DNA of 64,000 nt from positions 2,407 through 66,406 of the IMG/VR virus record IMGVR_UViG_3300028888_000124. One strand, given 5' to 3'. The notes beneath the pieces are model-generated. The model was not told where the DNA came from. It was given only the letters and a program-made list of their open reading frames with translations, and searched no databases. Positions 18,677 to 64,000 of this stretch are shown in pieces (positions within the stretch are counted from its first letter, which is position 1; every line of letters starts with the position of its first letter). Source of the DNA: a virus. A program made the translations under genes and the position numbers.

Positions 18677-18677
18677 A

Positions 18678-21295: not shown

Positions 21296-22067
21296 TTCTC
21301 TCGGCGACCGTATGAAGGGCTACGAAAATGTATCCCGTATTTATTTGCCGCGCCGCCTGCCCGTTATCATCCGGGTGGACGGCAGGGCATTTCATACTTT
21401 TACAAAGGGCTTTCAAAGGCCGTTTGATGAGGTGCTTGCCCAAGCAATGCGTGAAACCGCAATCGCGCTGTGCAAGGAAATCAGCGGCGCGAAGCTGGCG
21501 TACACGCAAAGCGATGAGATTTCTATTCTGGTAACCAATAACGACACGTTAGAAACTCAGCCTTGGTTTAATAATAACTTACAAAAATTAGTTTCTTTAT
21601 CTGCGTCTACTGCGACATTGGCTTTTGACAAGGCGTTTTATTGGGCCACAGTAACGTATAAGGGTGACGGACAAATGTTTCAAGTTTATGCAAAGGCATC
21701 CAAAACCGCCACATTTGATTCCCGTGCATTTGTTTTGCCTCCAGACGAAGTTACCAATTATTTTATCTGGCGGCAGCAGGACGCTGTCCGTAATTCTATC
21801 CAGATGGTTGCACAAAGCCTATATTCTCACAAGGAACTGCAAAACAAAAACTGCGATGACCTTCAGGAAATGATATTCCAAAAAGGCATCAACTGGAATC
21901 ATTATGAGCCCTGGAAAAAGCGTGGCATTTGTGTAAGAAAAAACGATATGGCGCTCATTGCGGGTGGTAAAGAAATATTACGTGGCACTTGGGAGCCGGA
22001 TTTCAACACACCTGTTTTTACCCAGGATCGTAACTATATCAACAACTTACTTCCAAAAGGAGATTAA
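21288..22067 (+). CDS. Thg1-like protein (tRNA-His guanylyltransferase family, 3-prime to 5-prime polymerase)
   Basis: IIRVDGRAFHTF and SDEIS motifs; ATG after GGAGGTGAACGAG, in the frame of track ORF 21246..22067. Confidence 0.7.
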   Translation: MPDSLGDRMKGYENVSRIYLPRRLPVIIRVDGRAFHTFTKGFQRPFDEVLAQAMRETAIALCKEISGAKLAYTQSDEISILVTNNDTLETQPWFNNNLQKLVSLSASTATLAFDKAFYWATVTYKGDGQMFQVYAKASKTATFDSRAFVLPPDEVTNYFIWRQQDAVRNSIQMVAQSLYSHKELQNKNCDDLQEMIFQKGINWNHYEPWKKRGICVRKNDMALIAGGKEILRGTWEPDFNTPVFTQDRNYINNLLPKGD

Positions 22068-22070
22068 CGA

Positions 22071-23090
22071 ATGACGCTTGATGAAATCAAAACTTAGGTC
22101 GCTTCACCGACCTACGACTTCCTGCGTACCGATCCCCATTTGCAGGGCCGCATGGCGATGCTGTGTCTTGGCGGTTCTCATGCCTATGGCACGAATACCG
22201 AAACGAGTGATCTGGATCTTCGGGGCTGCGCCTTGAACCGTCCTGAAGAACTGCTTGGCCTTTCCCATTTTGAACAAGTTCGCAACGACGAGCTGGACGT
22301 ATGTATCTATTCCTTCAATAAAATGGTGCCGCTCCTGTATGGCTGCAACCCTAACATCATTGAGATCCTGGGCTGTAAACCGGAGCACTATTTGTTCCTG
22401 TCGGATGTTGGGAAAGAGTTGATCAGCAACCGTCATATGTTCCTGTCTCAGCGGGCATCGTATACGTTTGGGGGCTATGCCTTTTCCCAGCTTCGCCGCC
22501 TGGAGAACGCTATTGCGCGGGACAAACTGCCGCAAGCGCAAAAGGAAGGCCACATCTGCAACAGTATCGAAAAGGTGATCCGTAACTTCAACACGGAAAG
22601 CCGCGCCAAACCCGTTTCCTATATGCTTTTCCTGGCCGATGCCGTACACGATGATCTTGAAAAGGAAACGTTCATCACCACCACATTGGATATGTATCCT
22701 GTTCGTGATCTCAAGGCTTTTGTGAATGACATCAACAATGTGATTAGGGATTATGAAAACGATTTGCACGGGCGCAACAAAAAGAAGGATGACCTCCATC
22801 TGAACAAGCACGCCATGCACCTTGTCCGATTGTATCTGATGGCGATTGATATCCTGGAAAAGGAAGAGATCATCACGTACCGCGAAGCTGACCACGATCT
22901 GCTGATGGATATCCGGCATGGGAAATATCAGCTTGAAGACGGCACGTTCGATTCTGCTTTCTTCGATATGGTCAACGACTTATCCAAGAAAATGGATTAC
23001 GCAAAGGCCAATACCTCCCTTCCCCGTTCGCCCGATATGAGACGCATTGAGGAATTTATGATTGAGGTCAATAAAAAATCAATTGTTTAA
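22071..23090 (+). CDS. nucleotidyltransferase (Pol-beta-like NTase fold, GS..DLDL); in-frame TAG at 22095
   Basis: RBS AAAAGGAG then ATG at 22071, in frame with track ORF 22140; GGSHAYGTNTETSDLDL motif. Confidence 0.65.
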
Positions 23091-25333: not shown

Positions 25334-26548
25334 ATGAAAGAACAAAGCGTTGTTTATCTGGTGAAGGTCGAGCCAGGAGCCAATAATAACAAATACTGGA
25401 AAGCAATGGCTCAAGGCGATCATTTCAACGTTGAGTATGGAAGGGTCGGCGGAACACCGCAGAAGTATTCCTATCCTATTTCCCAATGGAATAAAAAGTA
25501 CAACGAGAAGATAAAAAAAGGTTACGTTGACCGAACGGAATTGGTAGAGGATCTGATTGAAAAAGAAAAGCCCGCTACGCCGGATGGCTATCGTGCTATT
25601 GAAAACAAGGTGATCGCGGATATCGTGTCACGCTTGCAGGCCATGGCAAAGAAAGCGGTCAGCGAAAACTACACCATATCCTCCAGCAAGGTCACCATGG
25701 CAATGGTGTCTGCCGCTCAGGATCAATTAGCAAAGATGGCGGGCATGGCCGCCGCTTCCGTGGAAGAATTCAACCGCGCCTTGATTGAGCTGTTCGGTAT
25801 CATTCCCCGCAAGATGGGCCATGTATCATCCTATATTGCCACCAGCCAAAAGGAGTTTGGCCGTATTCTTGAACGCGAACAGGATCTGCTGGATGTGATG
25901 CGCGGTCAGGTGTATGTGCCGTCCAAGGAAAGCGAAATTGCCCCTCCTCCAAACGGTGAAGCCCACACGATCCTGGAAGAAAAGGGCCTTGTGTTTGAAG
26001 AAGTAACGGACGATGATATCGCCGTGATCAAATCCGCGCTTGGATCCTGTGCCGATAAATTCTGCCGCGCATGGCGAGTTACCAACCTGGCCACACAAAA
26101 ACGCTTTGATGAATATGTGCAGGGCGGCGTGAAGACAAAGCTTCTCTGGCACGGCTCCCGGAATGAAAACTGGTGGAGCATTGTGGGCAGCGGGCTGGTG
26201 TTGCGTCCCACCAATGCGGTCATCACCGGCAAGATGTTTGGCTATGGTATTTACTTTGCCACGAAAGCGCGAAAGTCTCTTGGGTACACCTCTCTTTCCG
26301 GCTCCTATTGGGCGCATGGTTCTTCCCCATCCGCGTTCATGGGGCTGTATGAAGTTGCCTACGGCAAGCCTTACGATGTGCATTCCTTTGATTCCAAATA
26401 TTATTCCCTGAATTATGAAGGGCTGCAGAAGATGTGTCCTGGGGCGAACTGCCTGCACGCGCACGAGGGCCAGATGCTTCGCAATGATGAAATCATTGTG
26501 TATCAGGAATGCCAAACGACAATCAAATATCTGGTGGAGCTCAAATAA
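25334..26548 (+). CDS. WGR-domain plus PARP catalytic-domain protein (H-Y-E triad present)
   Basis: N-terminal WGR-like YLVKVEPGANNNKYWKAMAQG..YGRVG; catalytic LLWHGSRNENWWSIVGSGL, GYGIYFATKA and NDEIIVYQ. Confidence 0.75.
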   Translation: MKEQSVVYLVKVEPGANNNKYWKAMAQGDHFNVEYGRVGGTPQKYSYPISQWNKKYNEKIKKGYVDRTELVEDLIEKEKPATPDGYRAIENKVIADIVSRLQAMAKKAVSENYTISSSKVTMAMVSAAQDQLAKMAGMAAASVEEFNRALIELFGIIPRKMGHVSSYIATSQKEFGRILEREQDLLDVMRGQVYVPSKESEIAPPPNGEAHTILEEKGLVFEEVTDDDIAVIKSALGSCADKFCRAWRVTNLATQKRFDEYVQGGVKTKLLWHGSRNENWWSIVGSGLVLRPTNAVITGKMFGYGIYFATKARKSLGYTSLSGSYWAHGSSPSAFMGLYEVAYGKPYDVHSFDSKYYSLNYEGLQKMCPGANCLHAHEGQMLRNDEIIVYQECQTTIKYLVELK

Positions 26549-30359: not shown

Positions 30360-31451
30360 ATGAGAAAATAGGCGAGCATTAAAACCATTACCAGCATTGC
30401 CCCGATTGAAGGAAAAGATTTGATCGGGCTGGCTGCCGTGGATGGCTGGGGTGTGATCGTGCAGAAGAGTCAGTTCAAGCCAGGCGATAAATGCGTGTAC
30501 GTTGAAATTGATTCCGTCATGCCTGAGAAGCCGGAGTTTGAATTTCTGCGCAAGAGAGATTTTCGCATTCGCACCATGAAGATGGCTGGCGTGATCAGTC
30601 AGGGCATCTGCTTCACGTTGGACATTCTTCCGCCCAAGAAAAACGGAAAAGAATATGCTCTGGACGAAGATGTGACGGAGGTCATCGGTGTTACCCAGTA
30701 CGAGCCTACAATGGATAAGGAACAGAACACCGAGAAAAAAGAACAGACAAAGAAATACCCCAAATGGCTGATGCGGTTTGCCTGGTTCCGGCGATTGGTA
30801 CTGGGGCCTCAAAAGAAAAAGGGCGGCTTCCCATCTTTCATTTCAAAAACAGACGAAGTGCGTATTCAGAATATCCCTCATATTCTGCAGGATAAGCGGG
30901 AATGGATCGCCACTGAAAAGGTGGATGGACAGAGCGGTACGTTTGCGCTGGTTCGCCATAAGCGCCGCATTCCCTTTATGAAGGACAAGTTTGAATACAT
31001 CGTCTGCTCCCGGAACTTGCGTTTGGCAAAGCCGGACAGTTCTTCTTACTGGCGTGTGTCCGAACGGTACAAGATCGAAAACGTTCTTGAGAATATGATT
31101 GGAGATCGTGAGTGGATCGCTATTCAGGGCGAGTGCGTTGCCCCCAACGTGCAGGGCAACAAATACAAAGTTACCGAGCCCGACCTGTATGTGTTCAATT
31201 TGATCTATCCCACCGGAAGGCTGGGAAGCAAGGTCGCCAAGTCAATCATCGAAAACCACGGCATGAAGTTTGTTCCCATCGTGGCTGAGGATTATGTGCT
31301 GCCGGATACCGTACAGGAAGTATTGGATTATGCTCATGGCCAGAGTGTATTGGGTGACACGCTGCGAGAAGGCATTGTTTTTCGCAGTAAAGACGGCGTG
31401 CATTCATTCAAAGCTGTCGATCCATTATTCCTGATCAAATACAACGAATAA
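30360..31451 (+). CDS. ATP-dependent RNA ligase (KxDG nucleotidyltransferase; N-terminal domain of the MRKLASI-type); in-frame TAG at 30369
   Basis: ATG at 30360 after GAAAGGA, in frame with track ORF 30420. N-terminus MRK(TAG)ASIKTI..PIEGKD; EKVDGQSGT motif. Confidence 0.7.
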
Positions 31452-37572: not shown

Positions 37573-37779
37573 ATGATTAGTCATCGATGTTATTGTGACC
37601 GATGCGGCAGTCTTGCTCCGCTCTCAATTTTTCATGTTGATGGTAATACAACGGCACAGTATACTCTCCTCCTTGAAGATACTGGTGACGAAAACTGGGC
37701 CTTAAATCGGATAAAATGTCATCTTTGCGAAAACTGTTATGCACAGATTCGTCGATTTATTAAAGGAGACAGCGAATAA
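37573..37779 (+). CDS. small zinc-finger protein
   Basis: ORF track; CxxC pairs. Confidence 0.4.
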   Translation: MISHRCYCDRCGSLAPLSIFHVDGNTTAQYTLLLEDTGDENWALNRIKCHLCENCYAQIRRFIKGDSE

Positions 37780-37789
37780 TATGCCTCAT

Positions 37790-38515
37790 GTTTTTGTTAC
37801 CGGGGATAAACATGGTGATTACAAGGATGTAGAACGCTGGTGCCTCAAATGGAATACTTCAAAGGATGATCTATTGGTCGTTCTTGGCGATAACGGTGTG
37901 AACTACTGGGGCCCACATCGGGATAAGAAGCTCAAGAACTATCTCTCCGCTCTGCCAATCACCTTCTTTATGATCAAAGGCAATCATGACCAGCGTCCGT
38001 CCACAAAACTGTATCACATTTCCGACGAAGTTCACCCGCTTGTAAAAGGGCCCTGCTATGTGGAACCGGATTATCCGTCGCTCCTGTTCTCCGCTATGTA
38101 TGGCGGCTATGAATTCCTGTGCAGCGATCTATGGAAGAAAGCTTTTGTTCTTGGCGGCGCATACAGCGCGGATAAGTGGTATCGCCTGGAAATGCAAGCG
38201 CTGGGTCACAGCGGGTATCGCTGGTTTGCGGACGAACAGATGAACAATTGGGAAATGAAGGAAGCCTCCTCCATGATCCATGCTTTCGAGCCGGACTTTG
38301 TTTTGTCCCACACCTGCCCGTTCCGCTACATACCGAGAGATATGTTTTTGCCTATGGTAGATCAGTCCACCGTAGACGATACCATGGAGCATTGGATGGA
38401 CATCGTTGAAGATGAGGTGCCTTATCAGAAATGGTACTGCGGCCACTGGCACACAGACAGAACGGTGGATCAAATGCGGTATATGTATCATGATATTATT
38501 TTGTTAGGAGAATAA
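37790..38515 (+). CDS. calcineurin-like metallophosphoesterase
   Basis: GDKHGD, GDNGVNYWG and GNHD motifs. Confidence 0.65.
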   Translation, partial: VFVTGDKHGDYKDVERWCLKWNTSKDDLLVVLGDNGVNYWGPHRDKKLKNYLSALPITFFMIKGNHDQRPSTKLYHISDEVHPLVKGPCYVEPDYPSLLFSAMYGGYEFLCSDLWKKAFVLGGAYSADKWYRLEMQALGHSGYRWFADEQMNNWEMKEASSMIHAFEPDFVLSHTCPFRYIPRDMFLPMVDQSTVDDTMEHWMDIVEDEVPYQKWYCGHWHTDRTVDQMRYMYHDIILLGE

Positions 38516-43401: not shown

Positions 43402-43734
43402 ATGGAAATTCTTTATGAACATGTTGCTGGTTCCGCGCCATGTATGCCGCTTGCAATTGTGGCGTGGAGTATCGCTGGGCTGATTTCTCTCTGGACTATC
43501 TATGAAGCAATTAAAGATGAAGATTCTTCATACTTGCTTATTCTTTTCCTCACGGGCATTATAGCGCTTCTTGGGTTCAAATCTACAGCTGATACCCGCT
43601 ACAACGAAGTAGTCGCTACAATCAATGAAAACGTTTCCTGGACTGAAGTGAACGATAGGTATGAACTGCTAAAACAAGAGGGTCAGCTTTATACCTTCAA
43701 AGTCAAAGAGGCACCCGATGAAGCAGAAGAATGA
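43402..43734 (+). CDS. small membrane protein
   Basis: ATG after GGAGGAATAAT, in the frame of track ORF 43360..43734. Confidence 0.4.
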   Translation: MEILYEHVAGSAPCMPLAIVAWSIAGLISLWTIYEAIKDEDSSYLLILFLTGIIALLGFKSTADTRYNEVVATINENVSWTEVNDRYELLKQEGQLYTFKVKEAPDEAEE

Positions 43735-44230
43735 TCTTGATTTAATCTGCGCCGATTAGTCGATGCGCTGTCCCGGCTTCGCGTAGATTCATTACAGCGC
43801 CAAAGAGCGTAAAGCGGCAGTAGTTCGCATGAGCTACGTGGATAACCACTATTCCAAAAAGCCACACGGCCAAATGCTTTCCGAGATCGCCCATGAATTC
43901 CGCACCTATCTCAAGGAAAAGCCAGACGCTATCCTCGTTCGGGAGCGTGGCTTCTTTCGGTTCGCAGCGGAAACAGAAGTGTAGTGCCGGGTCATTGGGG
44001 TGTCCGACCTGTATGCTTGGGCAACGGGGGAAAAGGTGTTTCAGGAAATCTCCCCAAAGGAAATCAAAAAATAGGTTGCAGGTTCCGGCAAAGCCGACAA
44101 ACAAGCGGTAGCGGATGCTTTGGAAAAATATGTGGGCAAATTGGAATATGAGCGTGACGACTGCAGTGATGCTGTGGCTGTAGGAATCGCCTGGCTGATT
44201 CAAAATAAATAGATCGATACCAAAGATTAA
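43718..44230 (+). CDS. RuvC-family Holliday-junction resolvase with 5 in-frame TAG codons (43757, 43784, 43982, 44072, 44210)
   Basis: RBS AAAGAGG then ATG. Translation LICAD(TAG)SMRCPGFA(TAG)IHY ... DCSDAVAVGIAWLIQNK resembles RuvC N- and C-terminal motifs; TAA stop. Not in the track because TAG splits it. Confidence 0.65.
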
Positions 44231-44686: not shown

Positions 44687-45628
44687 ATGAATTCAGTACA
44701 TGAGCTCATTGAGCAATTAAGGAAGTCTGATTATGTGCGCGAAAAGAGATTTGGAGACATATCGTCTTTCAACTTCACGCGCTCCGCTTTCTATGAGGGA
44801 CATTGGAACGCAGTAACGACGAAAGCACGAGGTCTGTTCATCAACACCCGCACAGAAAAAATCGTAGCCAGAGGATACGATAAGTTTTTCAATGTTGACG
44901 AAAATTCCCAAACCACCATGGACGCAATCCGGCAAAAGATTCTCTTTCCAATAAAAGTGTACAAGAAAGAAAACGGCTTCCTGGGACTCATCTCCTGGGA
45001 CCATGAGAAAGATGATTTCTTTTTTGCCACCAAGTCTATGATGGAGGGACCCTACGTTGACACCTTGAAGCATCTCTTCTTCACCACGGGTATCAACACA
45101 GAAGAAGTAAAAGCGTTTCTGCGCGAAGACAATTCTACTATGATTGTTGAGGTCATCGATCCTGTGTTTGACCCGCACATCATCGAATACGAAACAGCGC
45201 ATCTGGTTCTTCTGGATATAGTAGCCAATGCTCTGAGCACTGCCTATATGCCCTACTGGCGTCTTACTATACAAGCTTCCAATTTTCATATGGAAATAAA
45301 GAAGCTTCAAAGCACCCTCATGAAATTTCCATCTTTGGAAATTATTAAGCTGCTTTGCGATAAGCCCTATTTCGTTGACGAGAGCGGCAAGCCTTTTGAA
45401 GGCTATGTGTTCCGGGACGCCCGCAACTTTATGTTCAAAATGAAAACCGCCTACTATCTCAAGTGGAAACGGTATCGGAGATATGCCGATATGCTTCTTA
45501 ACGGCAAACAGCCTCAGGTTAAAGGGGATCTATTTCTTGCCTGGGTTGAAAAGAACAAGGACAAGCTGGGCTGTAAAAGCATTATTGAAATGAGGAATCT
45601 GTATGAGGCTGACAGCACGGAATTGTAA
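44687..45628 (+). CDS. T4 Rnl1-like RNA ligase
   Basis: KARGLFINTRTEKIVARGYDKFFNVDE parallels T4 Rnl1 ECRGIMFE..KPVRIASRPMEKFFNLNE, and a KKENG lysine motif follows. ATG after GTAGGAGGGCAACGA, in the frame of track ORF 44636..45628. Confidence 0.65.
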   Translation: MNSVHELIEQLRKSDYVREKRFGDISSFNFTRSAFYEGHWNAVTTKARGLFINTRTEKIVARGYDKFFNVDENSQTTMDAIRQKILFPIKVYKKENGFLGLISWDHEKDDFFFATKSMMEGPYVDTLKHLFFTTGINTEEVKAFLREDNSTMIVEVIDPVFDPHIIEYETAHLVLLDIVANALSTAYMPYWRLTIQASNFHMEIKKLQSTLMKFPSLEIIKLLCDKPYFVDESGKPFEGYVFRDARNFMFKMKTAYYLKWKRYRRYADMLLNGKQPQVKGDLFLAWVEKNKDKLGCKSIIEMRNLYEADSTEL

Positions 45629-52025: not shown

Positions 52026-53210
52026 TTGACGGTTGACACTTGTAATGAATCTTTATATACTAAAGATGAGTTGGAAGAAGTAGCCAAGATGACTGCCAGC
52101 GCGGTTGTCCAAGAACTGCTTCATTCCAACGTGAACCTTGACAACTCCATATCTGAGATTATAAATGTGCCAGAAAGGACAAATGATATGGCACGTATCA
52201 AACAAAGAGTTGTCCTCCCGAACGGACAGACCGTATGGTGCACAGGAGATACAATTGGAGACGCTATTACAAACCTCATGTCGCATATCGCTATAAACAA
52301 TAACGCGCCAAAACGAACAACCCCAACCTTACAGGAATACGGAGACAAATGGTATCACCTATACCACATCAAAAAAGTAAAGTGGAATACCGCGCAAAAC
52401 ACTCGTATCTATTTGGACAAACATATCTATCCGATAATTGGAGAAAAGCATCTTGATGAAATCACATTTGACGATATTCAATCTGTTTTCAACTCCATGG
52501 ATAGCTTGGCACGATCAACTGTTGAGAAGGTACAAATTGTCCTCAATCAAATTATGAAGAATGCAATAGAAGATGGCTACATCGAGAAAAACGTTATGTC
52601 ATCTTCTCGGTATGTGTTAAGCAAGAAAGTTAAGCAGAGAGAAGCTCTATCTACATCATCCGCACAAGATGTTATCAGACAGCTGGACACCCTGGAACCA
52701 AACGATAAAATTCTTATGGCACTCATTATCTTCACAGGACTTCGGCGTGGAGAAATTCTTGCGCTGACTTGGGACGATATTGATTTTGAAAACAAAGTAA
52801 TCCACGTAAAGCACAGCGTCACATTTAAAAATAACCAACCAATCATCTGCGGGACAAAAAGCAAGTCCGGCGTAAGAGACGTTCCAATAATAAAGGAGCT
52901 AAGGGAAATACTGAGCGCGGAAGAAGATAAGCATGGCTACATCATAAAGAATCATAAGTTCCCGGACATGCCGATTACAGAAAAAACATATCAGCGGGCA
53001 TGGGAGCGAATCAAAAAAACAATTGATCTTCACAATGCTACAGCCCATGTATTCAGACACACTTTTGCCACAATGATGGAGCCACACACAGACATAAAAA
53101 CTCTGCAGACAATAATGGGGCATGCGGATATTCAAACAACAATGAACCGATATACGCATAAAATTGATAAAAATATACAGGCACTTGCAGAAATCGATTC
53201 TTTTGTGTGA
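52026..53210 (+). CDS. int: tyrosine integrase (phage integrase family)
   Basis: AHVFRHTFAT (HxxR) and NRYTH catalytic Tyr motifs. AT-rich and TAG-free, compositionally distinct from its neighbours. Confidence 0.85.
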   Translation: MTVDTCNESLYTKDELEEVAKMTASAVVQELLHSNVNLDNSISEIINVPERTNDMARIKQRVVLPNGQTVWCTGDTIGDAITNLMSHIAINNNAPKRTTPTLQEYGDKWYHLYHIKKVKWNTAQNTRIYLDKHIYPIIGEKHLDEITFDDIQSVFNSMDSLARSTVEKVQIVLNQIMKNAIEDGYIEKNVMSSSRYVLSKKVKQREALSTSSAQDVIRQLDTLEPNDKILMALIIFTGLRRGEILALTWDDIDFENKVIHVKHSVTFKNNQPIICGTKSKSGVRDVPIIKELREILSAEEDKHGYIIKNHKFPDMPITEKTYQRAWERIKKTIDLHNATAHVFRHTFATMMEPHTDIKTLQTIMGHADIQTTMNRYTHKIDKNIQALAEIDSFV

Positions 53211-53425: not shown

Positions 53426-53544
53426 GGAGTCTACTATCTTTATGTAAAAGTGCATATTTATAATCTCGGTATGGAGATGTTAAGTTTCTATCAAAGTACC
53501 AATTTTGCTTGATATTTTGATAAGAACTTGAGCCAAAAAACAAA

Positions 53545-53572
53545 AAGAGGGAGGTCTTTCGACCTCCCTTAT
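53545..53572. terminator. bidirectional hairpin gagggaggtc-tttc-gacctccctt
   Basis: Downstream of the minus-strand holin gene. Confidence 0.5.
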
Positions 53573-53575
53573 TTA

Positions 53576-54037
53576 TTACATTTTGTCCCCACGAATCTCG
53601 GGAACGTTTTCATTTTCTTCTTCTGGTGCCTTCTTCTCGTGCGGTAGCACAATGCAAACCGCCTCAATGATCCCGTCGATAATCATAGCGATCTGCGGTG
53701 TAATCTCAATACCAGCATTACCCAATGTCTCCTTCACGAGAGATTTGGCGTAAGGATTCCGTTCTTCTTTTGTTAAGTTTCCAAGCTTCCACGCCTTCTC
53801 TGCAATCTCCGCCCCTTCGATAGCCGCCTTCATTACGGTTGAAACGGTCTTGAGCTCCTTCCGCTCAGGCCAGATATTGTATACAGCATCACAAGCAGCC
53901 TGCAGTCCGGCGATCACAGGGCGTGACAACACAATTCTCTTCAGGATGTCGATTCCCGTAAACCGTTTGACGAAGTACAAGATCGCTACAATCGCCGCAA
54001 AAACAATCTAAGCGATTTGATAAATGTTCAGTTCCAT
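53576..54037 (-). CDS. holin, LL-H family-like (N-terminal TM plus soluble domain); in-frame TAG at 54008 inside the TM segment
   Basis: RBS GAAGGAGGG then ATG at 54037, in frame with track ORF 53576..53980. The soluble domain resembles Holin_LLH proteins. Confidence 0.6.
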
Positions 54038-54039
54038 TA

Positions 54040-54330
54040 TCCATTCCCTCCTTCAGTTTCTTCGAATTCATTCTTTACGAATCCCAGCAGCTTCTTGTGT
54101 TTATCATAGTTTTCAAAACCAGCTTTGCCAAAGTAGCCAATCAGGACAGAGCCGGTCAGCGTGGCTGTGGTTTGAAAAATTTGCTATGAGGTTTCCCCCA
54201 CCCACTCAAACAGGATAGGGAGTGTATAGGAAACAACCATGGCAACACAAAATATACCAAGCACAAAGTAGACAATTCCTTTGGATGTTTCTCTTTTCTT
54301 TTCATTATTTTTTGCTGTTGCCACAGGCAT
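54040..54330 (-). CDS. small membrane protein (96 aa, holin-like accessory); in-frame TAG at 54184
   Basis: The ORF is exactly 97 codons from ATG to TAA, and its stop overlaps the start of the holin. Confidence 0.45.
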
Positions 54331-54334
54331 CACC

Positions 54335-54766
54335 TCAAATCAAAAAATCGTTTTCTATAGTAGACTTATGGTAAAGATTTACAATGTATTTATATTCTTC
54401 CTCGAACACGCCGTTTTTATCGCCCGTTACTTTCAGAAGATTTTCATATTTATCGTTCAGGGAAATGATGTGCTGAAATTCTTCCCGCGTGTGACGAACA
54501 CCATTTCTGCAGGATGTGGAAAAAGACAGCACCTCATATCGAATCCGGTCCTTCTCGTCAGCTAATTGCTGCTCCTTGATTTCCTTCATCTCAGTAGACA
54601 TCTTGTCCAGCTTATCTTCAACTGGCTTCACGATAATCCTGCCGATCCATGAAAACTACGCGCTGATCGGATTCCATTTGATTGCCGGTGTAAACTGAAT
54701 AACGATTCCAAGGAGAAAAGCGCACAGTCCCCAGTGATCCTATATCCACTTCAATACATCGTCCAT
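54335..54766 (-). CDS. membrane-anchored coiled-coil protein of the lysis cassette; 2 in-frame TAG codons (54740, 54656)
   Basis: ATG after GGGGGTG. The C-terminal part equals track ORF 54335..54631. Confidence 0.45.
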
Positions 54767-54769
54767 TGA

Positions 54770-55558
54770 TCACACCCCCAGAGAAGTGCCCAATGCTGCG
54801 AACAATTCTCTGGCAGCCTGCGTGGAAAGAATCACAACCACCGTGTCATCTGTGGCCGGAGTGGTTTGTCCTCCATCTACCTTTTGAAGGAACTTGCTCA
54901 TCATATAGCCATCCTTGTTTTTCGTATGAATTTTTGACCAACCGCTGTCCTATTCACCGAGTACCTGTACGATTGTGCCAATGCGGATGGGCTCCAGGAT
55001 TGTCGCGTTTGTGTTGGGATTCGCCCGCATGTTCACAGTAGCGCCGCTTTGCGCCACCACCTTTGCCGAATAATTGAGCTCGCTCATTTCACGATCATCT
55101 CCCCCATTTTGTTTAATCAAATCCAATGTTCCAGTATAGTGCCACGCACCAAGTTTACTGTCTCGCTGAATACCGCCCACCACGCTGGTGCAGTGTGTAA
55201 TACACAGCGGAGAAACAGATGTGACAACGCCGACATGGTAATAGTCTCTTTGGTCTGGATGATTTCTGTAAGCATCCGGCTACGACCATTTTGCGTCGCC
55301 TGGTTCCCGCGCCTTGAAGACAAGATCACCCAAAGACAATTCAGAGGCGGAGGATACATAATGGAAATTCACCACCCTGTTTCTGGCCGTGTAATTGCTT
55401 CCGTGTGTTCCAGTCCATTTAGCGCCGCAAAGACGGACAGCCCCGATGATCTATCCGATACAATCGCATTTGCCGCCGGTTCCGTCACAAGCGTTTTGAT
55501 ATTGATTCACACGGGAAACATTTTTTTGAACTCCGTCTAAAAATTCATTCAGGGTCAT
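54770..55558 (-). CDS. endolysin: CHAP-like amidase/peptidase domain plus a C-terminal SH3b cell-wall-binding domain; 3 in-frame TAG codons (55451, 55280, 54950)
   Basis: RBS AGGTGATAGTG then ATG. Catalytic Cys/His-region motifs KCDC.., PGDLVF, DYYHVGVVTSV; SH3b-like ATVNMRANPN..GWSKI..GYMMSKFL. Contains track ORF 54950..55183, whose stop is a TAG. Confidence 0.7.
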
Positions 55559-55781
55559 CACTATCACCTGATTCCGCGTCTTCGTTTTCTGTCTCTTCCT
55601 CTGGAAGGTCTGCCAACGGGATCATTTCGTTTGTTTCCTCATATTCCCGATCCTCATCGGCTGGATCAATTGCGTCCTCATATTTGACGCCGTCCCGCGT
55701 AATATATACCCCAATGTCTGAATACGTGCGGTACAGCGTCACACCGTCACTGCGAACCACATAAAGCTCTTTCACGATCAT
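55545..55781 (-). CDS. small acidic protein
   Basis: ORF track. Confidence 0.3.
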   Translation of the reverse strand: MIVKELYVVRSDGVTLYRTYSDIGVYITRDGVKYEDAIDPADEDREYEETNEMIPLADLPEEETENEDAESGDSDDPE

Positions 55782-56952
55782 GCTGATTCCTCCTTCTTAT
55801 TTCTCTCTTCGAAAACCATGGAAAATCTCTTTGCTCCTTCGGAAACAATTCCCTCACTAACTGTTCCATTTTACAAATCGTTCTGAACGCCATAAAATTT
55901 CTTGCGTATGCCCGCCAGGAAATGAAGGATTGAAAAACTTCAAGCGGTGTCATCTTTCCATTTTCCACCCGTGTCTTTAACCGTTTCAACTTCCGCCTTT
56001 CTACCACAACGCTGTGCTTATATATTTTTTTGATTACCTTGCCGCTGTTCGTCAGGTAGAATCGCGCTTTAAGAAAAGTGAATCCATGGGTCAGCTTCAC
56101 AATCTGCGTTTTCTTTGTATTCATCACAATGCCAAGCTCGTCGCAAATCCTGCGAATCTCTTTGAGGCAATGCCGCAAGTATTCCTTGGATGGGTGAATC
56201 AGGTATCCGTCATCCATATATCTTCCGTACCATTTGATCCTGAGCACTTCCTTCACGTAATGATCCAAACGGTTGGCGGAGGCAAGCGCCTATATCTGAC
56301 TTACCTGGCTGCCCAGTCCCAAACCTTTATCGCCAAACATGTGAACCATTTGCATAGCGACACTCTTTATTTCATTGTCCGAAACTGCCCGGTCGATCAC
56401 CTGTTCTATGACGGCGTGTGACACATTATCAAAGAATTTGCTGAAATCAAAAAGCAGCACATATCCATCATTTCCGTATTTCCGGTAATACTGGCGCAGG
56501 TGCGTTTCCATTCGCCTGATCGCAAATGCGTATCCCTTGTTCTCCATTGACGCGCCGTTATCATATATAAAAGAGCGTTTGACGGCGGGAACCAGGGCGT
56601 AATCGCAAAGACAGCGCTGTACACCACGCTCTCGAACTGTCACGCTTTTGATGTGGCGGTCATGGCCGCGTTCCCTGATATCAAACTCATAGAATTTATC
56701 TGGCTTGAATTTGCGTTTCTTCATTCTCCGGTAGCATTTTTCCACTTCCGTCGGAGCAAAGACGATTTGCTTTTGAATGCTGGCCTTCCATCTTACGCCA
56801 CGAGTGCATAGCTGAAAAGCCCGATAAAGGTGAGGATAGCTGAAAACCTGATCGTATGTGCCGATCTGGTTTTTGTTATATTCTTTCTATTTCTGTTTTC
56901 TCTTTTGAATACGGCGCTGGTATCTCGCCTCATGCCTTTCTTTGCTGTTCAT
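55747..56952 (-). CDS. DGR reverse transcriptase (motif 4 LGSQVSQ of the SQ type, YMDD); 2 in-frame TAG codons (56887, 56290)
   Basis: Fuses track ORFs 56290..56745 and 55747..56268 across the TAG at 56290, which sits in the S(P/Q)LLAN motif, and extends to the ATG at 56952 after GGAGGAAGA. RT motifs 1 to 7 are recognisable. Confidence 0.85.
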
Positions 56953-57180
56953 TCTTCCTCCAAAAATGGGCAGTCGCCCACGTCTGATAGATGGCTTTCC
57001 GCGATAGACGCATAGAACCACTGGGCATGAAACAAAGGGTTCGCCATCGACCTTTGCCATGCAAGAAGCGTCCGCCCAGGTTCGTCACGACTGATATTTA
57101 CGCTGAATGCGAAGGTTATTTCCTCCTTCTCTCCACCCGCGCTGATTTCGCAAAGCCTACTTTGTCTGACGGAGAGGATC

Positions 57181-57301
57181 CGAAGACCACGCCATTCGTG
57201 TTGGTCGGACCGTTATTGTTGTTGTTGCCGTTGTTGTTCACATTCACGAAGTTCGAAGTCGAATTCGCAGAACGGGTCCACCAGTTGTTCGTAGAGCCGG
57301 T
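57181..57301 (-). repeat. DGR template repeat (TR); AAC/AAT-rich, about 120 bp
   Basis: Aligns to VR1 and VR2 with all mismatches at TR adenines. Confidence 0.8.
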
Positions 57302-57336
57302 CTCATACAGGAAATAACCTCAATTAAAATGATAAA

Positions 57337-57750
57337 TTAAAATGGTTCGTTCAAAAACGACCAACGCTTTTTATCTGTTTCCATTACGCCTTGAATCAGG
57401 CGCATCTCTTCATTGATTTTTTCACTCCATTGCTGTATAATATTTTTGTCAATACCGAATCTGCCGTCTGCGAGGCCGATGAAACAGTCCAGCTTTTTCA
57501 GTTCACCAATGGCTTTCATGAAATAATCTTTTCTGGTCTGCAGCTCTCCTGCGTTCGTCGGCCAGATGTTATTGGCTTCGATCACATGACCGCAGGTATC
57601 AAGCGCTGCGTCGATGATTCTTTGCCCCAGGCCGAAGCGCTGTCCCTTTGGAAAATGCCCATACTGCACAAGCGTGAAGGCTGCCTATTCGCGGGCTTGA
57701 TAAATAAATTGCGTTGATGGTTCTGATCGTAGACTTTTAGGGACTGACAT
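57337..57750 (-). CDS. avd: Avd-like DGR accessory protein (four-helix-bundle protein family); in-frame TAG at 57685
   Basis: QRFGLGQRIIDAALDT..IEANN pattern of the four-helix-bundle family. ATG at 57750 after AGGAGG, in frame with track ORF 57337..57669. Sits between the target gene and TR-RT. Confidence 0.7.
57373..57405 (+). promoter_or_regulatory. plus-strand copy of the TCTGTTTCCATTAC motif followed by the hairpin cgcct-tgaatc-aggcg, inside the minus-strand avd gene
   Basis: Read directly from the sequence. Confidence 0.3.
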
Positions 57751-57769
57751 TTCCTTTTATCCTCCTGCG

Positions 57770-57800
57770 AAGAGTGGGGAGGGACGGAGCCCTCCCCGAT
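57770..57800 (-). other. GC-rich stem-loop ggggaggg-acggag-ccctcccc immediately 3-prime of VR1 (DGR homing-associated hairpin)
   Basis: Inverted repeat. An analogous hairpin, ggggcggcg..cgccgcccc, follows VR2 at about 58960..58990. Confidence 0.5.
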
Positions 57801-57817
57801 TTTAAGATTTTAGATTA

Positions 57818-58936
57818 TCAAATGCAGAAGCCGAAGACCACGCCATACGTGCCGGTCGGACCGTAATTGCCGCTGCCGCCGCCGCCGTACACACTCACGA
57901 AGTACGAAGTCGAAAACGCAGAACGGGTCCACCAGGAGTTCGTAGAGCCGGTTGATGTAAACCTGACCCTGCTTGAGCTATCATCAAAAATGCCGGTATA
58001 CTGCACGCCGCTTGTTTCTTTCAAATAGTTGCCCGTAAAACATACTTCGCGGGATGACGGGATCCACAGCTTGTCGCTGCTTGTTTTCTATTCCCCAGCG
58101 TTGCTGTTGGCGGTTGCGTCCCAATAGGTTTTGTTGACCGCCTTGATAACGCCTTCCGCCTGCAGTTCGGAAGGAAGCTGACTGAACACTGTATCGTTCA
58201 GCCAATACCGCATAGTGTTGGTTCCGCTTGCGCCCCAGCCATCGGTCATGCTGCTTCCCATTGCGTGGGTGCCATATTGCTGGGCAAGGAGCCACGTCAT
58301 TTTTGCGTTTCCGCCGCTGGTCAGTTCGTCCGCGTTTTTGGCTGCCAGCGTAATAATATAATTCGTTCCATTCAGGTTGATGTACGCCGTGTCCCCCACG
58401 TTGTATTTGGAATCAAACGTCCCATCCTCTCCGGCGGCAATGATTTGTGCCCAGGTATCGGTAATTGTTACGAAGCTTGTTTTCGGATAGGAGCTGATGG
58501 GAAAAATCACATTGCGGTATGCTTTCCAGTTGCTGGCAGCTTTATAGGTATCGACAAGATTGTCGGTCACATAAATACCCGCCTGGCCTTTTGCAATAGG
58601 AGTGCTGGCAAATGCGTCATAATTGTTCAACGTGCAAGCTTGGGCATTTTCCAGAATCACGCCCTTTAAAGCGGAGCACCCTGAAAAGGCAGACTGGATT
58701 GCACACTTGCCGCCAATTCTTACCGTTTCCTATGCGGTGCAGTCACTAAAAGCAGAAGAACCCAAAGAGGTCAGAGTGGGAAAATTCACGTCCTTCTACG
58801 TGGTCTGCTTATACATTGCGTATTGACCGAGCGTAGATATGCCGTCGTCCACAAACTCTGTCAGCGTATGGGCGATCAAAGCATCCAATGTTCCTTGGTC
58901 TCCCAGCGTTGCTTTGGTGTTGGTATATGTTGCCAC
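57818..58936 (-). CDS. DGR target protein 1: LRR (BspA-type) plus a C-terminal variable domain ending GVVFGFCI; 3 in-frame TAG codons (58796, 58730, 58088)
   Basis: Fuses track ORFs 57818..58024 and 58088..58660 and extends to the GTG at 58936. It is a paralogue of the C-terminus of the giant gene. VR1 lies at 57832..57952. Confidence 0.7.
57832..57952 (-). repeat. DGR variable repeat 1 (VR1)
   Basis: Matches TR except at TR adenine positions. Confidence 0.8.
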
Positions 58937-59003
58937 AAAAACACCTTCTTTCAAAGAGTGAGGGGCGGCAGGGACGCCGCCCCGATTTTAAGATTTCAGA
59001 TTA

Positions 59004-62000
59004 TCAAATGCAGAAGCCGAAGACCACGCCAAGCGTGCCGGTCGGACCGTTACTGCCGATGCTGCCGTAGTAGAGCACACTCACGAAGCCCGAAGTCGAA
59101 TACGCAGAACGGGTCCACCAGTTGCTCGTAGAGCCGGTAGTCAAATCGTATTTCTTCCTATTATTATTGCTTGTGAATTTGCTGGAATAAATAACGCCGC
59201 TCGTCTCCTGCGCGTATTGCCCAGTGAAGCCAACCTCCCGTCCAGATGCCAGCCAAACCTTCATTGCCGCAGTTTGAGTTGTGTTTGCTGAAGCGTCCCA
59301 GTATGTCTTATCAACAGACTTGATACCAGTTGACGCTTTCAACGCAGCGGGCAGACTGTTGTATACATCATTTTCCAGGTATGTGCACATTTCTGTCTGG
59401 ACATAAGGGACCATTGAACCGTGCATGCGTTTCGTTTCCGCAAAGTCCTTGACCATCCATGCAGTCTTCGCCGTTCCTTCTTCACCGATATTGACCAGCT
59501 CCATCATAACCAGCTTGCCGTCTCCGTAAGTAACGGACTTGGTTGCGCCCACCGTGTATGAGAATGTACCGGAGTTAATATTACTTACGATGGTAGCCCA
59601 GTCATCGGTAATAGAACCAAAGTCTGTTACAGGGTAATCTCCGATTGGATGGATTCTGCTGGCATATGCGCTCCAATTGGTTGCGGACTTGTACTGTGCC
59701 ACCAATGAGGCGGGCACATAAATTACTCCGAAACCGGAAGTGAACGGGTTAGAAGGCAAAGCGTTAGATGAAGCCAACGTAGCCACGCCAGATGTGGAAC
59801 GAATAAACAGAGCAGTCAGCGCATTACAGCTTGAGAATGCGTTTGCCGCAATACTCACTTGCCCGCTTGTCGCGGTCAAGTCAACGGTGTTCAGTTTGGA
59901 ACAGCCAGAGAAGGCATATTGCTCAATCGTGGTAGCGGATGTTGTTGCTGTTTCCAGCGTGCTCATATTATAGAACGCATATTGTCCAACCGTTGTAGCC
60001 GTGTCGCTCTCGTACTCCGTCATGGTTCTCGCCAGATACTTCACAATCGGAGAACTCATATCCCGGAACACAGCATAGCATGTGGTGTTGCCCTGAATAT
60101 TCGTAGGAGCAGGAGACCATCCGTCAAACACAAACGCGCTGCCGCGAGATGAGGTAGGCGTTGATCCGGTATAGCTTGCGCTTCCGCCATAAGGCACATT
60201 GTTCACTGTCTGCAATGTTCCGCCGCCGTCAGTAGAATTCTTGGCGAAAGTTACGGTGTAAACCTGTCCGGTCAGGCGGTAAGCCGCATAGACGTTTCTA
60301 TCCGCCGTCACGTTTTGCGTGGCCGTGCTGTCCACTGTGGTGGAATTTGTGTTCCTGCTCCATCCAATGAATGTAAAGGTATTCGCTGCCGTAGCCGCGT
60401 GTGTTGGTTGGCCGCTCCAAGTTCCATTACCACCGTCAACAATCGTATCGGTGTGGAGAAGCGTATCACCCTCGTAGTTATAGTAATGCAGATAACTGGT
60501 GATATGATCAAACAATACAGTAATATCGGGATATCGTTCCTGCAGGCTGGCCATTTGTGCGCCTGTCAAAGAAGGAATATGGATCACGCCGCGCACCTGC
60601 GCTCTGTCCACATTGCCGCCGTTTTCGTCCAGGCCCCGCATGGTATCCTACTTGTTATACAGCGCGTTTGCCGCCGCGTAGTCCACCATATTCCAGGTAA
60701 ATCCAATCAGCCGCAGACGGGAATTGGCCGCCAGGGAATTGACGATAGAAGCAGAATCAATTGTATTGCTCACGTTTTCCAGTCTCAAGGTGGTAATGTT
60801 CGCCCCAGAAGGAAGCGTGAATTCCGTAATGCCTGTCTGGTTCAGGATCGTCAGGTTGGTGATCGTAGAAGGAAGATGCAGTTTTTTCAGCACACCGCCG
60901 TTAGGCAGGGCCACGCCTGTAATCTGCGTTCCGTCAAAGTAGACTTCTTCAATGGCTATGCAGCCGGAAAGGTCAACCGATTTCTGGTCGCCCGTTCCAA
61001 GCGCTGTGCAGTTCCGAGCGTCCAATGTCTTGAGCAGCTTGTTGCTTCCCAGCGTCAGGTTGTTCAGGTTGGGGTTTTCATAGTTTGCGTCCGAATCGCC
61101 CACCTTGATGTGCTGCAGGTTGACGCCCATGGAGAAGTCGGCAAAGCCCACCTTCAACCCGGACAAGTCGCCGCAGGATGCAATCTGGGGCGCGGAATAG
61201 ATATAGATTTCTGTATCGTTCACGTTGTCCAGCGGGCAGGCCAGGGTTGTCGCCTGTCCATGCGTGCCGCGCTGCTGCACCAGGTAAGAGGCGTATTTCA
61301 CGGTTGGGTAAATGTCAGTGTAAGGAGTAAGGGTGATGTCCGCTTTTGCGTAACCGCGCAGCTGGATCACCTGGCTCAATGCCTCACCCGCATTCCATTT
61401 GGAATCCAGATACTTGAAGCGGTTATACAGCCACCATTTTCTTTGTTCCGTCTTTGATCCCTGCAGCATTGGCAGATATACGGCTGTTGGCTGCTTGCCG
61501 GGGTCGGGAGAAATCAGCGGCATAATGTATTTGAACCATGCGTCTTCGTTCCACACGGCTTCCGGCCATTTCTCCTGGTGCGTTTCAAAGCGCCGCTCCA
61601 CTTCCGCGTAAGACAGCGTTCCGTTTGAGCGCAGGGTTTGGTACATTTGCCGGATCTCGTTGGAGAATGCGTCGCGCACATTGCACCACAGCACGGAATC
61701 CTGTCCGTTGAACACGTTCGCGCCTCCGGCAAGATGGTCGGTGTCTTCCAAAGAATATCCAAACACCAGCGAGCCTTCGTTGTTCGTGCCAAGGCCGGTA
61801 TCCATGTCGTAAGGTTCCGCCACCGCTTTACGGTCAATATGCTGAATCTTTGTGGGGTCGGTGTCTGAGCCGGAGAAACCAATAAACAGGTTCTTGGCTC
61901 GGCTGTCCACCATCAGGAAGAATTCCGTAAAGATATAATAGAAGATAAAGGACTGCACTTCGGCGTAATTGCCAAACTCCGCCTTGAACTTCGCCAATCT

Positions 62001-64000
62001 GTAATTTGCGGAGTCGGTCGTATAGGTCACGCCGTCATAGGTCACGGAATCCGCCTAAGCGTCGCCCGTTGCCTCTGTTCTGTCGGTAGACACAATGAAG
62101 GATTGCAGTTCCTGAAGCTTCGTGTAATCCACCCATTCGTCAGATGGGAAGCGGGCTTCAAAGTCATAGCGCCACAGTTCTTTTGTTTCGCCGGTGTCAG
62201 GGTCGGTATACATGGTTTCGTCGAAATAGTCAGATTTGTAAACCATCAGGTCAGAAGTGTTGTTCTGGAATTCCCAGCTTTCCATGTTACCCGAATAGCC
62301 ATAAGGTTCCGGTGCTCTCTTGGGCAGGTTGAAGTTATATTTTCCAAGGAAAGAAGTGGTTCCGCTGTCCGTATTGTTCCAGAACACCACCATCGGGAAT
62401 CCGAAAATACCCTGGCGCACTTTGGGGTTGGCGATCATTTCCCGCGTCTTGAAAGGAGAAATGTCACAGTACAGCTTCACCAACTCCACGTTGTTCGCGC
62501 CTTCGCTGGAAGCCACGTCCGCCTTATACACAAAACGGTTGAAAGGAATAACGGAAGAATCCAGAGCATAATTGTCAATGTGTCCATAATTGGTTTCAAA
62601 TCCGCTCTTGTATTGCGTGTCGTAGTTTTTCCGGGCATAAGGAGCAGATGAAGTACCCTGCACGTTGATTTGCACGCCGGTCGCCACAAAGCTCTTTTCC
62701 GCATGAACAGGGTCAATGTAGCGGATAGTACATGTTTTTTTATCCCCTTTGTACTGGGGCAGCTCAGGCACCTCAATGATGACGTATGGCAGGTCGCCCG
62801 GCAAGCTGGAAATCACGATGTTTCCATACTCGTCATACACCTTGTTGCGGTTATACCGCGCCACCATATCTTCGATCACCTGGGTATCCGCAATCCAGTT
62901 GTCCAGAATCTGATTTCTGTTCAGGTCGTTGTCATACACGCGGATGCAATAGATGTCCACCGCGCAATCGTTTGAGCCGATGGAAATGTTCGCGGGTGTC
63001 GCTTGCGCAAAGTCGTCGTCGCTCGGATATTGCACCACGCCGCTCATGATGCCGTTCACGTAGCAGAAAACCAGCCGGTTTTCCGATCTCTTTTCCACCA
63101 CGAATGACAGCCGCACATGCTCGTTTTCTTTGTACTGCATGGAGATTTCGCTCTGCTCGGATTTCAGCGTCGCTTTCTGGGATGTCATCGAAAATCCCCG
63201 TCCGCCGTTCATGCTGGAAATAATTGTCGCGTCGTAGTCCAGCACGGAACGGGTGGCAAACTCAACCTCAATCGTCTTGCCTGTGCCGCGGAAGTCCGTC
63301 TCAAAAATCTTGTAAGGAATGGTCACTCTCGCGTCGCCAGCCACGCGCAGAACGGGCGTACCCTCCTCGTCGTGCTGCCATCCGTCAGAGGTCCAGTTAA
63401 AGTCGCTCATGGTCGCGGAGATATTGCCGGAAGTCCATGTCGCCCTTGCCACGGCGGATTCGTCGTTGCTTCGTCCGGCGCTGGTCAGGTACAGCGCAAG
63501 GTCTTCCGTTTCGGCAGCCACGTCGATCTCGCTTTCAGTCACGGTGATCGTGAACGCACGCACCTCTTCCCCGCTTGCAATGGTGACGGTCATCGTTCCG
63601 GTATTCACAGGCCGATAGTCAAACACATGGCTTGTGCGGTCCACGTTGGTCAGCGTGGAGACCACTTCATTGTTGATCGCAATGGTCACGTCGGACACCA
63701 TGCTCAAAGGATTATAAACAGTGTAATCAATATGAATAGGCGTATACTGCGTAACAGATGTTGTGGTGAAGTTTGATGTGATAATTGGTTCTGAGCTCAG
63801 AGGATCAATGCAGATGATTTCGTAATACAGCTCGTTGCTGCGAACGGTTTGGCCGTTGATCTCTGCTTCAAAATAACACCGCAGCGTATGCGCCCCGTGA
63901 GATTGCTGCAAAATTGTGTAAGATTGCTGGCGGTTGGAAACGGATGTAGTCGCTGTTCCAATAAATTCATTGGCGGTTCCTTCGTCCAGAATAAAATAAA
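59004..64000 (-). CDS. giant DGR target protein 2 (over 1650 aa, N-terminus beyond the window): lectin-like domain, LRR arrays and a C-terminal variable domain; at least 2 in-frame TAG codons (62055, 60648)
   Basis: Track ORFs 62055..63911, 60648..62045 and 59004..60641 share one frame and are separated only by TAG. The frame stays open upstream to the window end. VR2 lies at 59018..59138. Confidence 0.7.
59018..59138 (-). repeat. DGR variable repeat 2 (VR2)
   Basis: Matches TR except at TR adenine positions. Confidence 0.8.

Follow-up and report, generated by a model that had tools for sequence, protein, structure and literature searches.

A two-target diversity-generating retroelement with in-frame TAG codons, probably read as leucine, in an IMG/VR phage contig

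Introduction

The diversity-generating retroelement (DGR) of Bordetella phage BPP-1 (mtd-avd-TR-brt) is the paradigm of these systems. Here we describe a DGR on the minus strand of a 64,000-nucleotide stretch of viral DNA (IMG/VR record IMGVR_UViG_3300028888_000124, positions 2,407 to 66,406), hereafter the window, whose own numbering is used throughout. Like BPP-1, this locus shows the order target gene, avd, template repeat (TR) and reverse transcriptase (RT), adenine-only differences between the TR and the variable repeats (VRs), a VR at the C-terminal end of a receptor-binding-type protein with a predicted C-type-lectin (CLec) fold, a structured RNA between TR and RT, and a GC hairpin downstream of the VR. 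Unlike BPP-1, it has two targets for one TR, these targets combine leucine-rich repeats (LRRs) with a DUF6273 domain instead of being Mtd, the hairpin stands ~35 nt past the homology, and all the genes contain in-frame TAG codons.

DGRs of the same RT clade are found in gut Firmicutes phages (among others Roseburia phage Shimadzu and the Faecalibacterium phages Taranis, Toutatis and Pioen) and in ~600 IMG/VR contigs, with 46–60% RT identity. They share Avd, an RT-2 RNA abutting the RT and a TR that ends 1–6 nt before that RNA but, unlike the locus described here, use the standard code with no TAG inside RT or Avd; the in-frame stops in the related RT/Avd loci were natural gene ends only (0 TAG). 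Treponema denticola TvpA and other DGR variable proteins, as well as a Thomasclavelia ramosa IgA peptidase domain (PDB 2y3c, 9qa6), resemble the variable domain at only 12–16% identity and, unlike in those proteins, the CLec domain here follows BspA-type LRRs, in a putative phage fibre.

Decoding of TAG as leucine is known from the Escherichia coli suppressor supP (tRNA-Leu CUA) and from the green-algal mitochondrial codes 16 and 22. In these cases, as in the reading proposed here, TAG is read as leucine through a tRNA-Leu, a tRNA that has no identity element in its anticodon; they are laboratory or host suppressors or organellar codes, and none is the genome-wide code of a phage. Since leucyl-tRNA synthetase (LeuRS) recognises its tRNA without reading the anticodon, changing a single base there would suffice to create a leucine decoder. 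We know of no bacterium in which TAG is read as leucine, and no report of this decoding in a phage or a bacterium was found in the part of the literature covered by our search; the phage TAG reassignments in accessible papers are to glutamine.

In particular, the code-15 phages (Lak, crAss-like, Jade, Sapphire and Agate clades) read TAG as glutamine (bioRxiv 10.1101/2021.08.26.457843). The present phage resembles them in that TAG is enriched in structural and lysis genes, while the integrases and large replication genes are TAG-free, and differs from them in that TAG aligns with leucine and not glutamine, that the early SSB and RuvC-like genes need decoding, and that no tRNA or release factor 2 (RF2) was found on 70 kb. 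Seven Zeta crAss-like phages reported in 2025 carry amber codons in their DGR RT genes and have CLec-tipped fibre targets (PMC12386605). They and the present phage have in common a DGR in a TAG-recoded phage, an RT with a GxxxSQ motif and amber codons, and a CLec-tipped tail-fibre target. In these Crassvirales, recoding accompanies a phage-encoded tRNA(CUA), whereas here no tRNA was seen, Avd and both targets are recoded too, and TAG faces leucine. As amber-interrupted DGR RTs have been published, a DGR with a recoded RT is not new in kind; the DGR presented here is a textbook example, and its apparent TAG-to-leucine code is the noteworthy part.

The DGR cassette

A repeat search between 53 and 64 kb returned one three-copy repeat family, made up of the TR and two VRs. 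Along the minus strand, the cassette reads target gene 2 (with VR2), target gene 1 (with VR1), avd, TR, RT-2 RNA, RT and then lysis genes:

59004..64000 in the window, minus strand: target gene 2 (T2), 2070 codons, with its start at 65216 (window numbering), outside the window
62057 and 60650, minus strand: in-frame TAGs of T2; a third, at 65150, lies outside the window
59018..59138, minus strand: VR2, at the C-terminal end of T2; 18 mismatches against the TR
58962..58983, minus strand: hairpin 2, GGGGCGGCG/CGCCGCCCC, GC-rich, 9-bp stem and 4-nt loop, 22 nt past the T2 stop codon
57818..58936, minus strand: target gene 1 (T1), 372 codons from the GTG at 58936; LRR_5 plus a DUF6273/predicted C-type-lectin-fold domain
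58798, 58732 and 58090, minus strand: in-frame TAGs of T1
57832..57952, minus strand: VR1, the last 40 codons but four of T1; 20 mismatches against the TR
57776..57797, minus strand: hairpin 1, GGGGAGGG/CCCTCCCC, GC-rich, 8-bp stem and 6-nt loop, 22 nt past the T1 stop codon
57337..57750, minus strand: Avd accessory protein, 137 codons, TAA stop, one in-frame TAG at codon 22 (57687-57685), in the context FIYQARE-TAG-AAFTLVQ
57181..57301, minus strand: TR, non-coding; 36 adenines in 121 nt, 15 AAY codons in the VR frame
56951..57174, minus strand: RT-2 RNA (Rfam RF03077), structured, lying between TR and RT start
55747..56952, minus strand: DGR reverse transcriptase, 401 codons from the ATG at 56952, TGA stop
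56889-56887 and 56292-56290, minus strand: in-frame TAGs of the RT, at codons 22 and 221; the second lies inside LGSQVSQI-TAG-ALASAN

An earlier note on this DNA had proposed a canonical minus-strand DGR, and the repeats were found exactly where it had placed them, together with the RT, Avd, hairpins and targets. We have hardly any doubt that this is a real DGR with two targets. As far as sequence can be used to judge, the cassette fits the DGR family on every feature.

The TR, VR1 and VR2 are 121 nt each on the minus strand and align without gaps. All 38 TR/VR differences (20/20 in VR1 and 18/18 in VR2) fall on TR adenines, of which 25 vary (22 A>G, 13 A>T and 3 A>C among the differences), a pattern expected by chance with P ~1e-20 given 36 adenines in the 121 nt of the TR; re-alignment thus confirmed the adenine-specific signature claimed before, and the codon changes then cited as examples were correct. 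Each of the 15 AAY codons of the TR is changed in at least one VR; with 15 such codons, ~15^15 sequences would be open to each target. No adenine occupies a third codon position of the TR in the VR frame, and none of its codons is able to mutate to TAA, TGA or TAG, a layout that matches the standard DGR design. The TR and VR homology ends 3' at GTGGTCTTCGG, beyond which the sequences diverge. No third VR was found on the source contig.

Both hairpins fold as DNA (−9.5 kcal/mol, z −2.6, for hairpin 1 and −12.3 kcal/mol, z −3.1, for hairpin 2), and the differences among the four hairpin copies, two here and two in a related contig (L087, see below), are compensatory; the GC-rich stem-loop reported earlier after each VR was thereby upheld. 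No T-run was found downstream of the hairpins, so that hairpin 1 is not a typical terminator.

The RT matches Pfam RVT_1 (1.3e-13) and, over residues 10-389, phrog_1423 'reverse transcriptase' (2.4e-75). The NCBIfam RT models, a set with no dedicated DGR-RT model, all scored under their cut-offs. Among 4,830 matches at E <= 1e-10, the 120 listed are uninterrupted metagenomic RTs with 56–74% identity, and the residue counts at RT sites given below rest on these 120; among named phages, the most similar RT belongs to Roseburia phage Shimadzu (46%). The DGR motif is present at residues 212-219 as LGSQVSQ, and GLGSQ[IV]SQ occurs in 120/120 listed homologues. The earlier identification of an RT with a DGR motif therefore stands, the motif being LGxxxSQ and not LGxxSQ as written then, as do its two TAGs, one of them within the motif region (SQI-TAG-ALASAN). 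An RT start at 57060 was rejected, as the 36 upstream codons of open frame overlap the RT-2 RNA, and the ATG at 56952 was retained.

The RT-2 RNA, a part overlooked in the earlier note, scored 127.1 bits against a gathering score of 40 over the full model (1-222), with the match ending at the RT start codon. In the related loci scanned, this RNA abuts the RT start in 9/9, and in 8/8 of those tested an adenine-mismatched TR ends 1–6 nt before it; the spacing between TR (57181) and RT-2 RNA (57174) here agrees with these loci. The RT-1 to RT-19 RNAs have been published only as motifs near RT genes that are possible parts of retroelements (PMC5737381). Judged by its position, the RT-2 RNA most likely represents the spacer within the DGR template RNA, a counterpart of the BPP-1 spacer.

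The Avd protein matches phrog_3206 'Avd protein of DGR' (6.7e-10) and, under the cut-off of 80, NCBIfam DivGenRetAVD (3.3e-5, 24 bits). By tblastn, its residues 1-133 align with 77 Avd genes situated beside related RTs (30–39% identity), which bears out the proposed Avd gene with one TAG. An Avd start at a GTG past the TAG was rejected, since the similarity to homologues begins at residue 1.

BspA-type LRR_5 and DUF6273 domains occur in each of the two targets (in T1, LRR_5 1.1e-7 and DUF6273 1.3e-12). T2 consists of a weak CotH-like middle region followed by LRRs and a DUF6273/CLec-fold tip, and it falls in large phage families to which PHROG assigns no function. An AlphaFold model of its last 260 residues (pLDDT 92.6) places the VR in a C-type-lectin fold at the C-terminus of the target, as had been suggested for this domain. 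In the earlier description of the targets as LRR tail-fibre-like proteins, the term 'tail-fibre-like' rests on gene position and the unassigned PHROG families, there being no direct match. A glycosyltransferase family 2 gene with one in-frame TAG lies directly upstream of T2, outside the window (65227-66213 in window numbering; L001:1311-2300); together with the CotH-like region, it is unusual company for a tail fibre.

A relative on a 10.5-kb contig (L087, 84% DNA identity over 8.7 kb) has lost most of avd, the TR, the RT-2 RNA and RT codons 1 to ~361. At its junction (L087:10000-10200, equivalent to window 55861-57712), Avd codons 1-13 are followed by the last ~40 RT codons, while both VR-bearing target genes and their hairpins are retained, as orphan VRs. 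This clean loss of avd-TR-RT shows that gain and loss of the mutagenesis core take place within short spans of time. Two other related IMG/VR contigs (L007 and L008) have one and the same TR, from which their VRs deviate at 13 and 18 adenine sites; these differences show, as population-level evidence and for the clade only, apparent DGR activity.

In-frame TAG codons

Homology continues across every TAG in RT, Avd, T1, T2, the gene p143 downstream of the RT, and the single-stranded DNA-binding protein (SSB). For the RT, the 120 listed homologues are continuous across both TAG sites, and for Avd 76/76 homologues align from residue 1 across the codon-22 TAG. As homologues span every TAG, RT and Avd require read-through; neither gene is interrupted by a TAA, a TGA or a frameshift. 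Hence, RT, Avd and both targets very likely depend on TAG decoding and, to judge from these alignments, would be producible at full length only in this way. Public gene calls made with the standard code break T1, Avd and RT into pieces of 190, 110, 144 and 169 residues, and DGR surveys based on such calls will miss cassettes of this kind. The earlier note had reported recoded codons in RT and Avd, which is correct and incomplete, since both targets also hold TAGs (three each). It had also made DGR activity dependent on a suppressor: the need for read-through holds, and neither window nor contig yielded a suppressor tRNA.

Open reading frames (ORFs) were called with TAG allowed as a sense codon, and their ends at TAA or TGA follow from the method. 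Of the 67 ORFs that scored above 20 for codon usage, 37 stop at TAA and 30 at TGA, and in none of them does an in-frame TAG lie close to the C-terminus, where a true stop would be expected. TAG accounts for 1.8% of the leucine plus TAG codons in plus-strand (early) genes versus 6.5% in late genes, a 3.6-fold difference, and the large polymerase, the primase-helicase and both integrases are TAG-free. This distribution fits a late-gene gate.

Internal TAGs were also observed in early genes, namely SSB, a RuvC-like ORF (5 TAGs) and a Cas4-like nuclease (8848-9258, 43718-44230 and 18630-19472), and recoding is thus not confined to late genes. The SSB TAG is at codon 10 (MNKVMIIGR-TAG-TGDP), in a protein aligned from residue 1 with solved SSBs; in the Cas4-like nuclease, the context is SFSK-TAG-ESYSHCP.

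Identity of the amino acid at TAG

The residues found opposite individual TAG codons in homologues were as follows:

Avd codon 22: leucine in 76/76
p143 codon 37: leucine in 15/15
T1 codon 47: leucine in 39/45
T1 codon 69: leucine in 39/45
T2 codon 1054: leucine in 35/41
T2 codon 1523: leucine in 26 and lysine in 10 of 46 homologues
RT codon 221: leucine in 88, phenylalanine in 26 and methionine in 5 of the 120 listed homologues
SSB codon 10: the leucine of VGRLTKDPE in the PDB SSBs compared
RT codon 22: lysine or arginine, not leucine
T1 codon 283: variable, methionine in the closest relative

Leucine is the majority residue at 7/9 TAG sites and glutamine at 0/9. Log-odds summed over the nine sites, with down-weighting, gave +15.3 bits for leucine, −11.0 for methionine and −22.2 for glutamine, and several of the sites correspond to buried leucines of the LRRs or of a helix bundle.

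The comparison with L087 provides the strongest test of the meaning of TAG. Four TAGs are conserved at the same sites in both genomes, and at seven variable sites the other genome has TTA, TTG, TTG, TTG, CTG, CTG and ATG. TAG is thus exchanged with a leucine codon at 6/7 variable sites, in both directions, and never with CAA or CAG. As two base changes separate TAG from TTA and likewise from CTG, this is an exchange of the synonymous type and not fresh nonsense mutation. These results make it probable that TAG encodes leucine in this lineage.

Search for the TAG decoder

The window corresponds to positions 2439-66438 of a ~69.96-kb contig recovered in ENA, JGI and Logan assemblies. The flanks L001 and L003 (3.5 and 2.4 kb) complete the 69.96-kb contig, and neither there nor in the window did ARAGORN detect a tRNA of any kind. 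Likewise, no tRNA-like Rfam match (E <= 1) was found in the window, and no tRNA(CUA) in the related loci scanned. A permissive ARAGORN call, a 'tRNA' with a 4-base anticodon inside a FolD gene, was discarded as a false positive. No phage RF2 or factor directed against release factor 1 (RF1) was found in the window, nor RF2 on the 70 kb, although RF2 was not searched for systematically. The suppressor is therefore deduced and not seen, and it could be encoded by the host.

Both contig ends (L003:1-150 and L001:1-150; P0204) consist of tandem repeats, with a 30-nt unit, CACCGGGCACCGCAACACCGGGGACGGCAA, on the left and 44-residue repeats within a Gp58-like tail gene on the right; a 70,172-bp contig from the homologue search extends the sequence by just a single further unit of 44 residues. 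The recovered contig carries no head or packaging genes. Since both ends are repeat-induced assembly breaks and these genes are missing, the genome is incomplete, the absence of a tRNA from the phage is not shown, and the tRNA could be located on the part not recovered. With the end protein p361 as query, IMG/VR and JGI metagenomes yielded distant relatives only, without tRNA, and megablast of the 53.5–64 kb region against GenBank phages gave no match. An exact 51-mer taken at the end of the window had no match in IMG/VR either. A search for the host or a prophage among GTDB genomes with the DnaE-like polymerase produced a single match of 38% in a metagenome-assembled genome, which was uninformative.

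Discussion

By analogy with BPP-1, from which priming, Avd dependence and homing are borrowed, the TR and the adjoining RT-2 RNA would be transcribed as one RNA serving as both template and primer RNA. The RT, with Avd, would copy the TR into cDNA while misincorporating opposite adenines, and the cDNA would replace VR1 or VR2, recoding the 15 AAY codons on the predicted C-type-lectin-fold tip of two LRR proteins of the receptor-binding type. The GC hairpins that follow the VRs probably serve to mark the target and help in its recognition. As RT, Avd and both targets need TAG decoding, diversification would take place only in cells that read TAG, and we expect this to happen while the phage runs its own programme of expression. 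A tRNA-Leu with the anticodon CUA would serve as decoder, located off the recovered 70 kb.

Several observations weigh against this picture. VR1 and VR2 are identical across the independent assemblies that carry them, with no sign of ongoing diversification, though these assemblies may stem from one sample, and we infer the current activity of the DGR from its sequence. The hairpins lie farther past the end of the TR/VR homology than in BPP-1. RT codon 22 faces lysine or arginine, T1 codon 283 is variable with methionine in the closest relative, and no tRNA was detected; the insertion of leucine at TAG is itself deduced from sequence comparison. Taken jointly, a real DGR, a requirement for TAG decoding and leucine as the meaning of TAG nevertheless form an account that we consider likely, if somewhat less so than the leucine assignment by itself.

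One could suppose that RT and Avd are pseudogenes of a dead DGR and that the VR pattern is a fossil, as L087 has deleted most of avd, TR and RT, making the core dispensable, and changes such as AAG>TAG and TTG>TAG need a single base. However, TAGs are found in nearly every late gene (the lysin, the holin-like gene and both fibres) and in SSB, they are placed at the same sites in L087 at 84% nucleotide identity, RT and Avd are free of internal TAA, TGA and frameshifts, and the TR/VR mismatches are purely adenine with no decay, so that we give this explanation almost no weight. Hardly more credible is the usual code 15, in which TAG would be glutamine, read by a suppressor of the tRNA-Gln(CUA) type, and the leucine pattern a coincidence. 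The accessible literature assigns all phage TAG reassignments to glutamine, which would be tolerable opposite the lysine or arginine of RT codon 22, but glutamine is nowhere the majority residue at the nine sites, its log-odds are −22 against +15 bits for leucine, L087 exchanges TAG with TTA, TTG and CTG and never with CAA or CAG, and several of the sites are buried leucines of LRRs or of a helix bundle. Also improbable is that TAG acts as a leaky stop that keeps RT and Avd very low, short of full reassignment: TAG would be contested by the RF1 of the host, the window showed no phage RF2 or anti-RF1 factor, and low RT levels suffice for DGR homing, yet structural proteins needed in many copies hold three TAGs each, the RuvC-like ORF holds five, and the absence of in-frame TAGs near the C-terminus in the 67 ORFs argues that TAG is not used as a terminator.

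The alternative that deserves most attention, though still unlikely, is that TAG is decoded by the host, through a leucine amber suppressor or a host-reassigned TAG, in which case the phage would have no gate on the DGR. It would account for the lack of a tRNA on 70 kb of phage DNA and for the TAGs of SSB and other early genes, whose translation has to come ahead of much of the phage's expression, and about half of the published code-15 phages also lack a Sup-CTA tRNA. On the other hand, a phage tRNA may sit in the unrecovered part of an incomplete genome, late genes have 3.6 times as many TAGs per leucine position as early genes (6.5% against 1.8%), with none in the integrases or the largest early genes, as published for phage-driven recoding, and no bacterium with TAG as leucine is known to us. 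We lean, by a small degree, towards a rumen/gut-type phage lineage (the window and L087) with a TAG-to-leucine code, in which the DGR, lysis, tail and some replication genes would be expressible only with a leucine-type amber decoder.

If TAG is indeed leucine here, stop-codon recoding in phages would not be limited to glutamine and tryptophan, and pipelines that apply table 15 to such phages would mistranslate conserved hydrophobic positions. As LeuRS ignores the anticodon, TAG as leucine may be an easy and overlooked recoding route.

Other features of the contig

Downstream of the RT, the minus strand continues with a run of genes that includes PHROG amidase and holin matches; these genes are context and not parts of the DGR:

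55545-55781, minus strand: p78, no TAG; first of the downstream gene run 53576..55781
54770-55558, minus strand: SH3 lysin, 3 TAGs; SH3_3 5.8e-9
54335-54766, minus strand: p143, 2 TAGs
54037-54333, minus strand: p98, 1 TAG
53576-54037, minus strand: holin-like gene, 1 TAG

The gap at 53490-53613 is situated between convergent blocks, the plus-strand genes ending at 53512 and the holin-like gene at 53576. It gave weak matches on both strands (E 0.3–0.7) to MicX, an unrelated small RNA model, which probably reflect a bidirectional terminator hairpin. At 6151-7074 and 52026-53210 there are two tyrosine recombinase/integrase genes, neither with a TAG; the convergence of the second one with the lysis cassette suggests that the phage is temperate and has a standard-code integrase.

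The early region contains an RNA/tRNA-repair set (21285-23087, 30372-31448, 37739-38512, 44690-45625 and 10438-11988), with a Thg1-like guanylyltransferase (PF04446, 1.9e-32), an RlaP nucleotidyltransferase, Rnl2-like and T4 Rnl1-like RNA ligases, a metallophosphoesterase and a DUF2828/DUF7788 protein. This set is possibly relevant to tRNA maintenance in a recoded phage. A NAD-related module (25334-26545, 15666-16451 and 17074-18318) comprises a PARP-like protein (WGR plus PARP catalytic domain), a NAD synthase and a candidate nicotinate phosphoribosyltransferase-like gene, the last named from a reading of its sequence by eye. Finally, among the related DGR phage contigs, a group I intron was detected at L009:2583-2910 (89 bits), and a type II hammerhead ribozyme, barely above threshold (37.6 bits), at L011:15770-15834.

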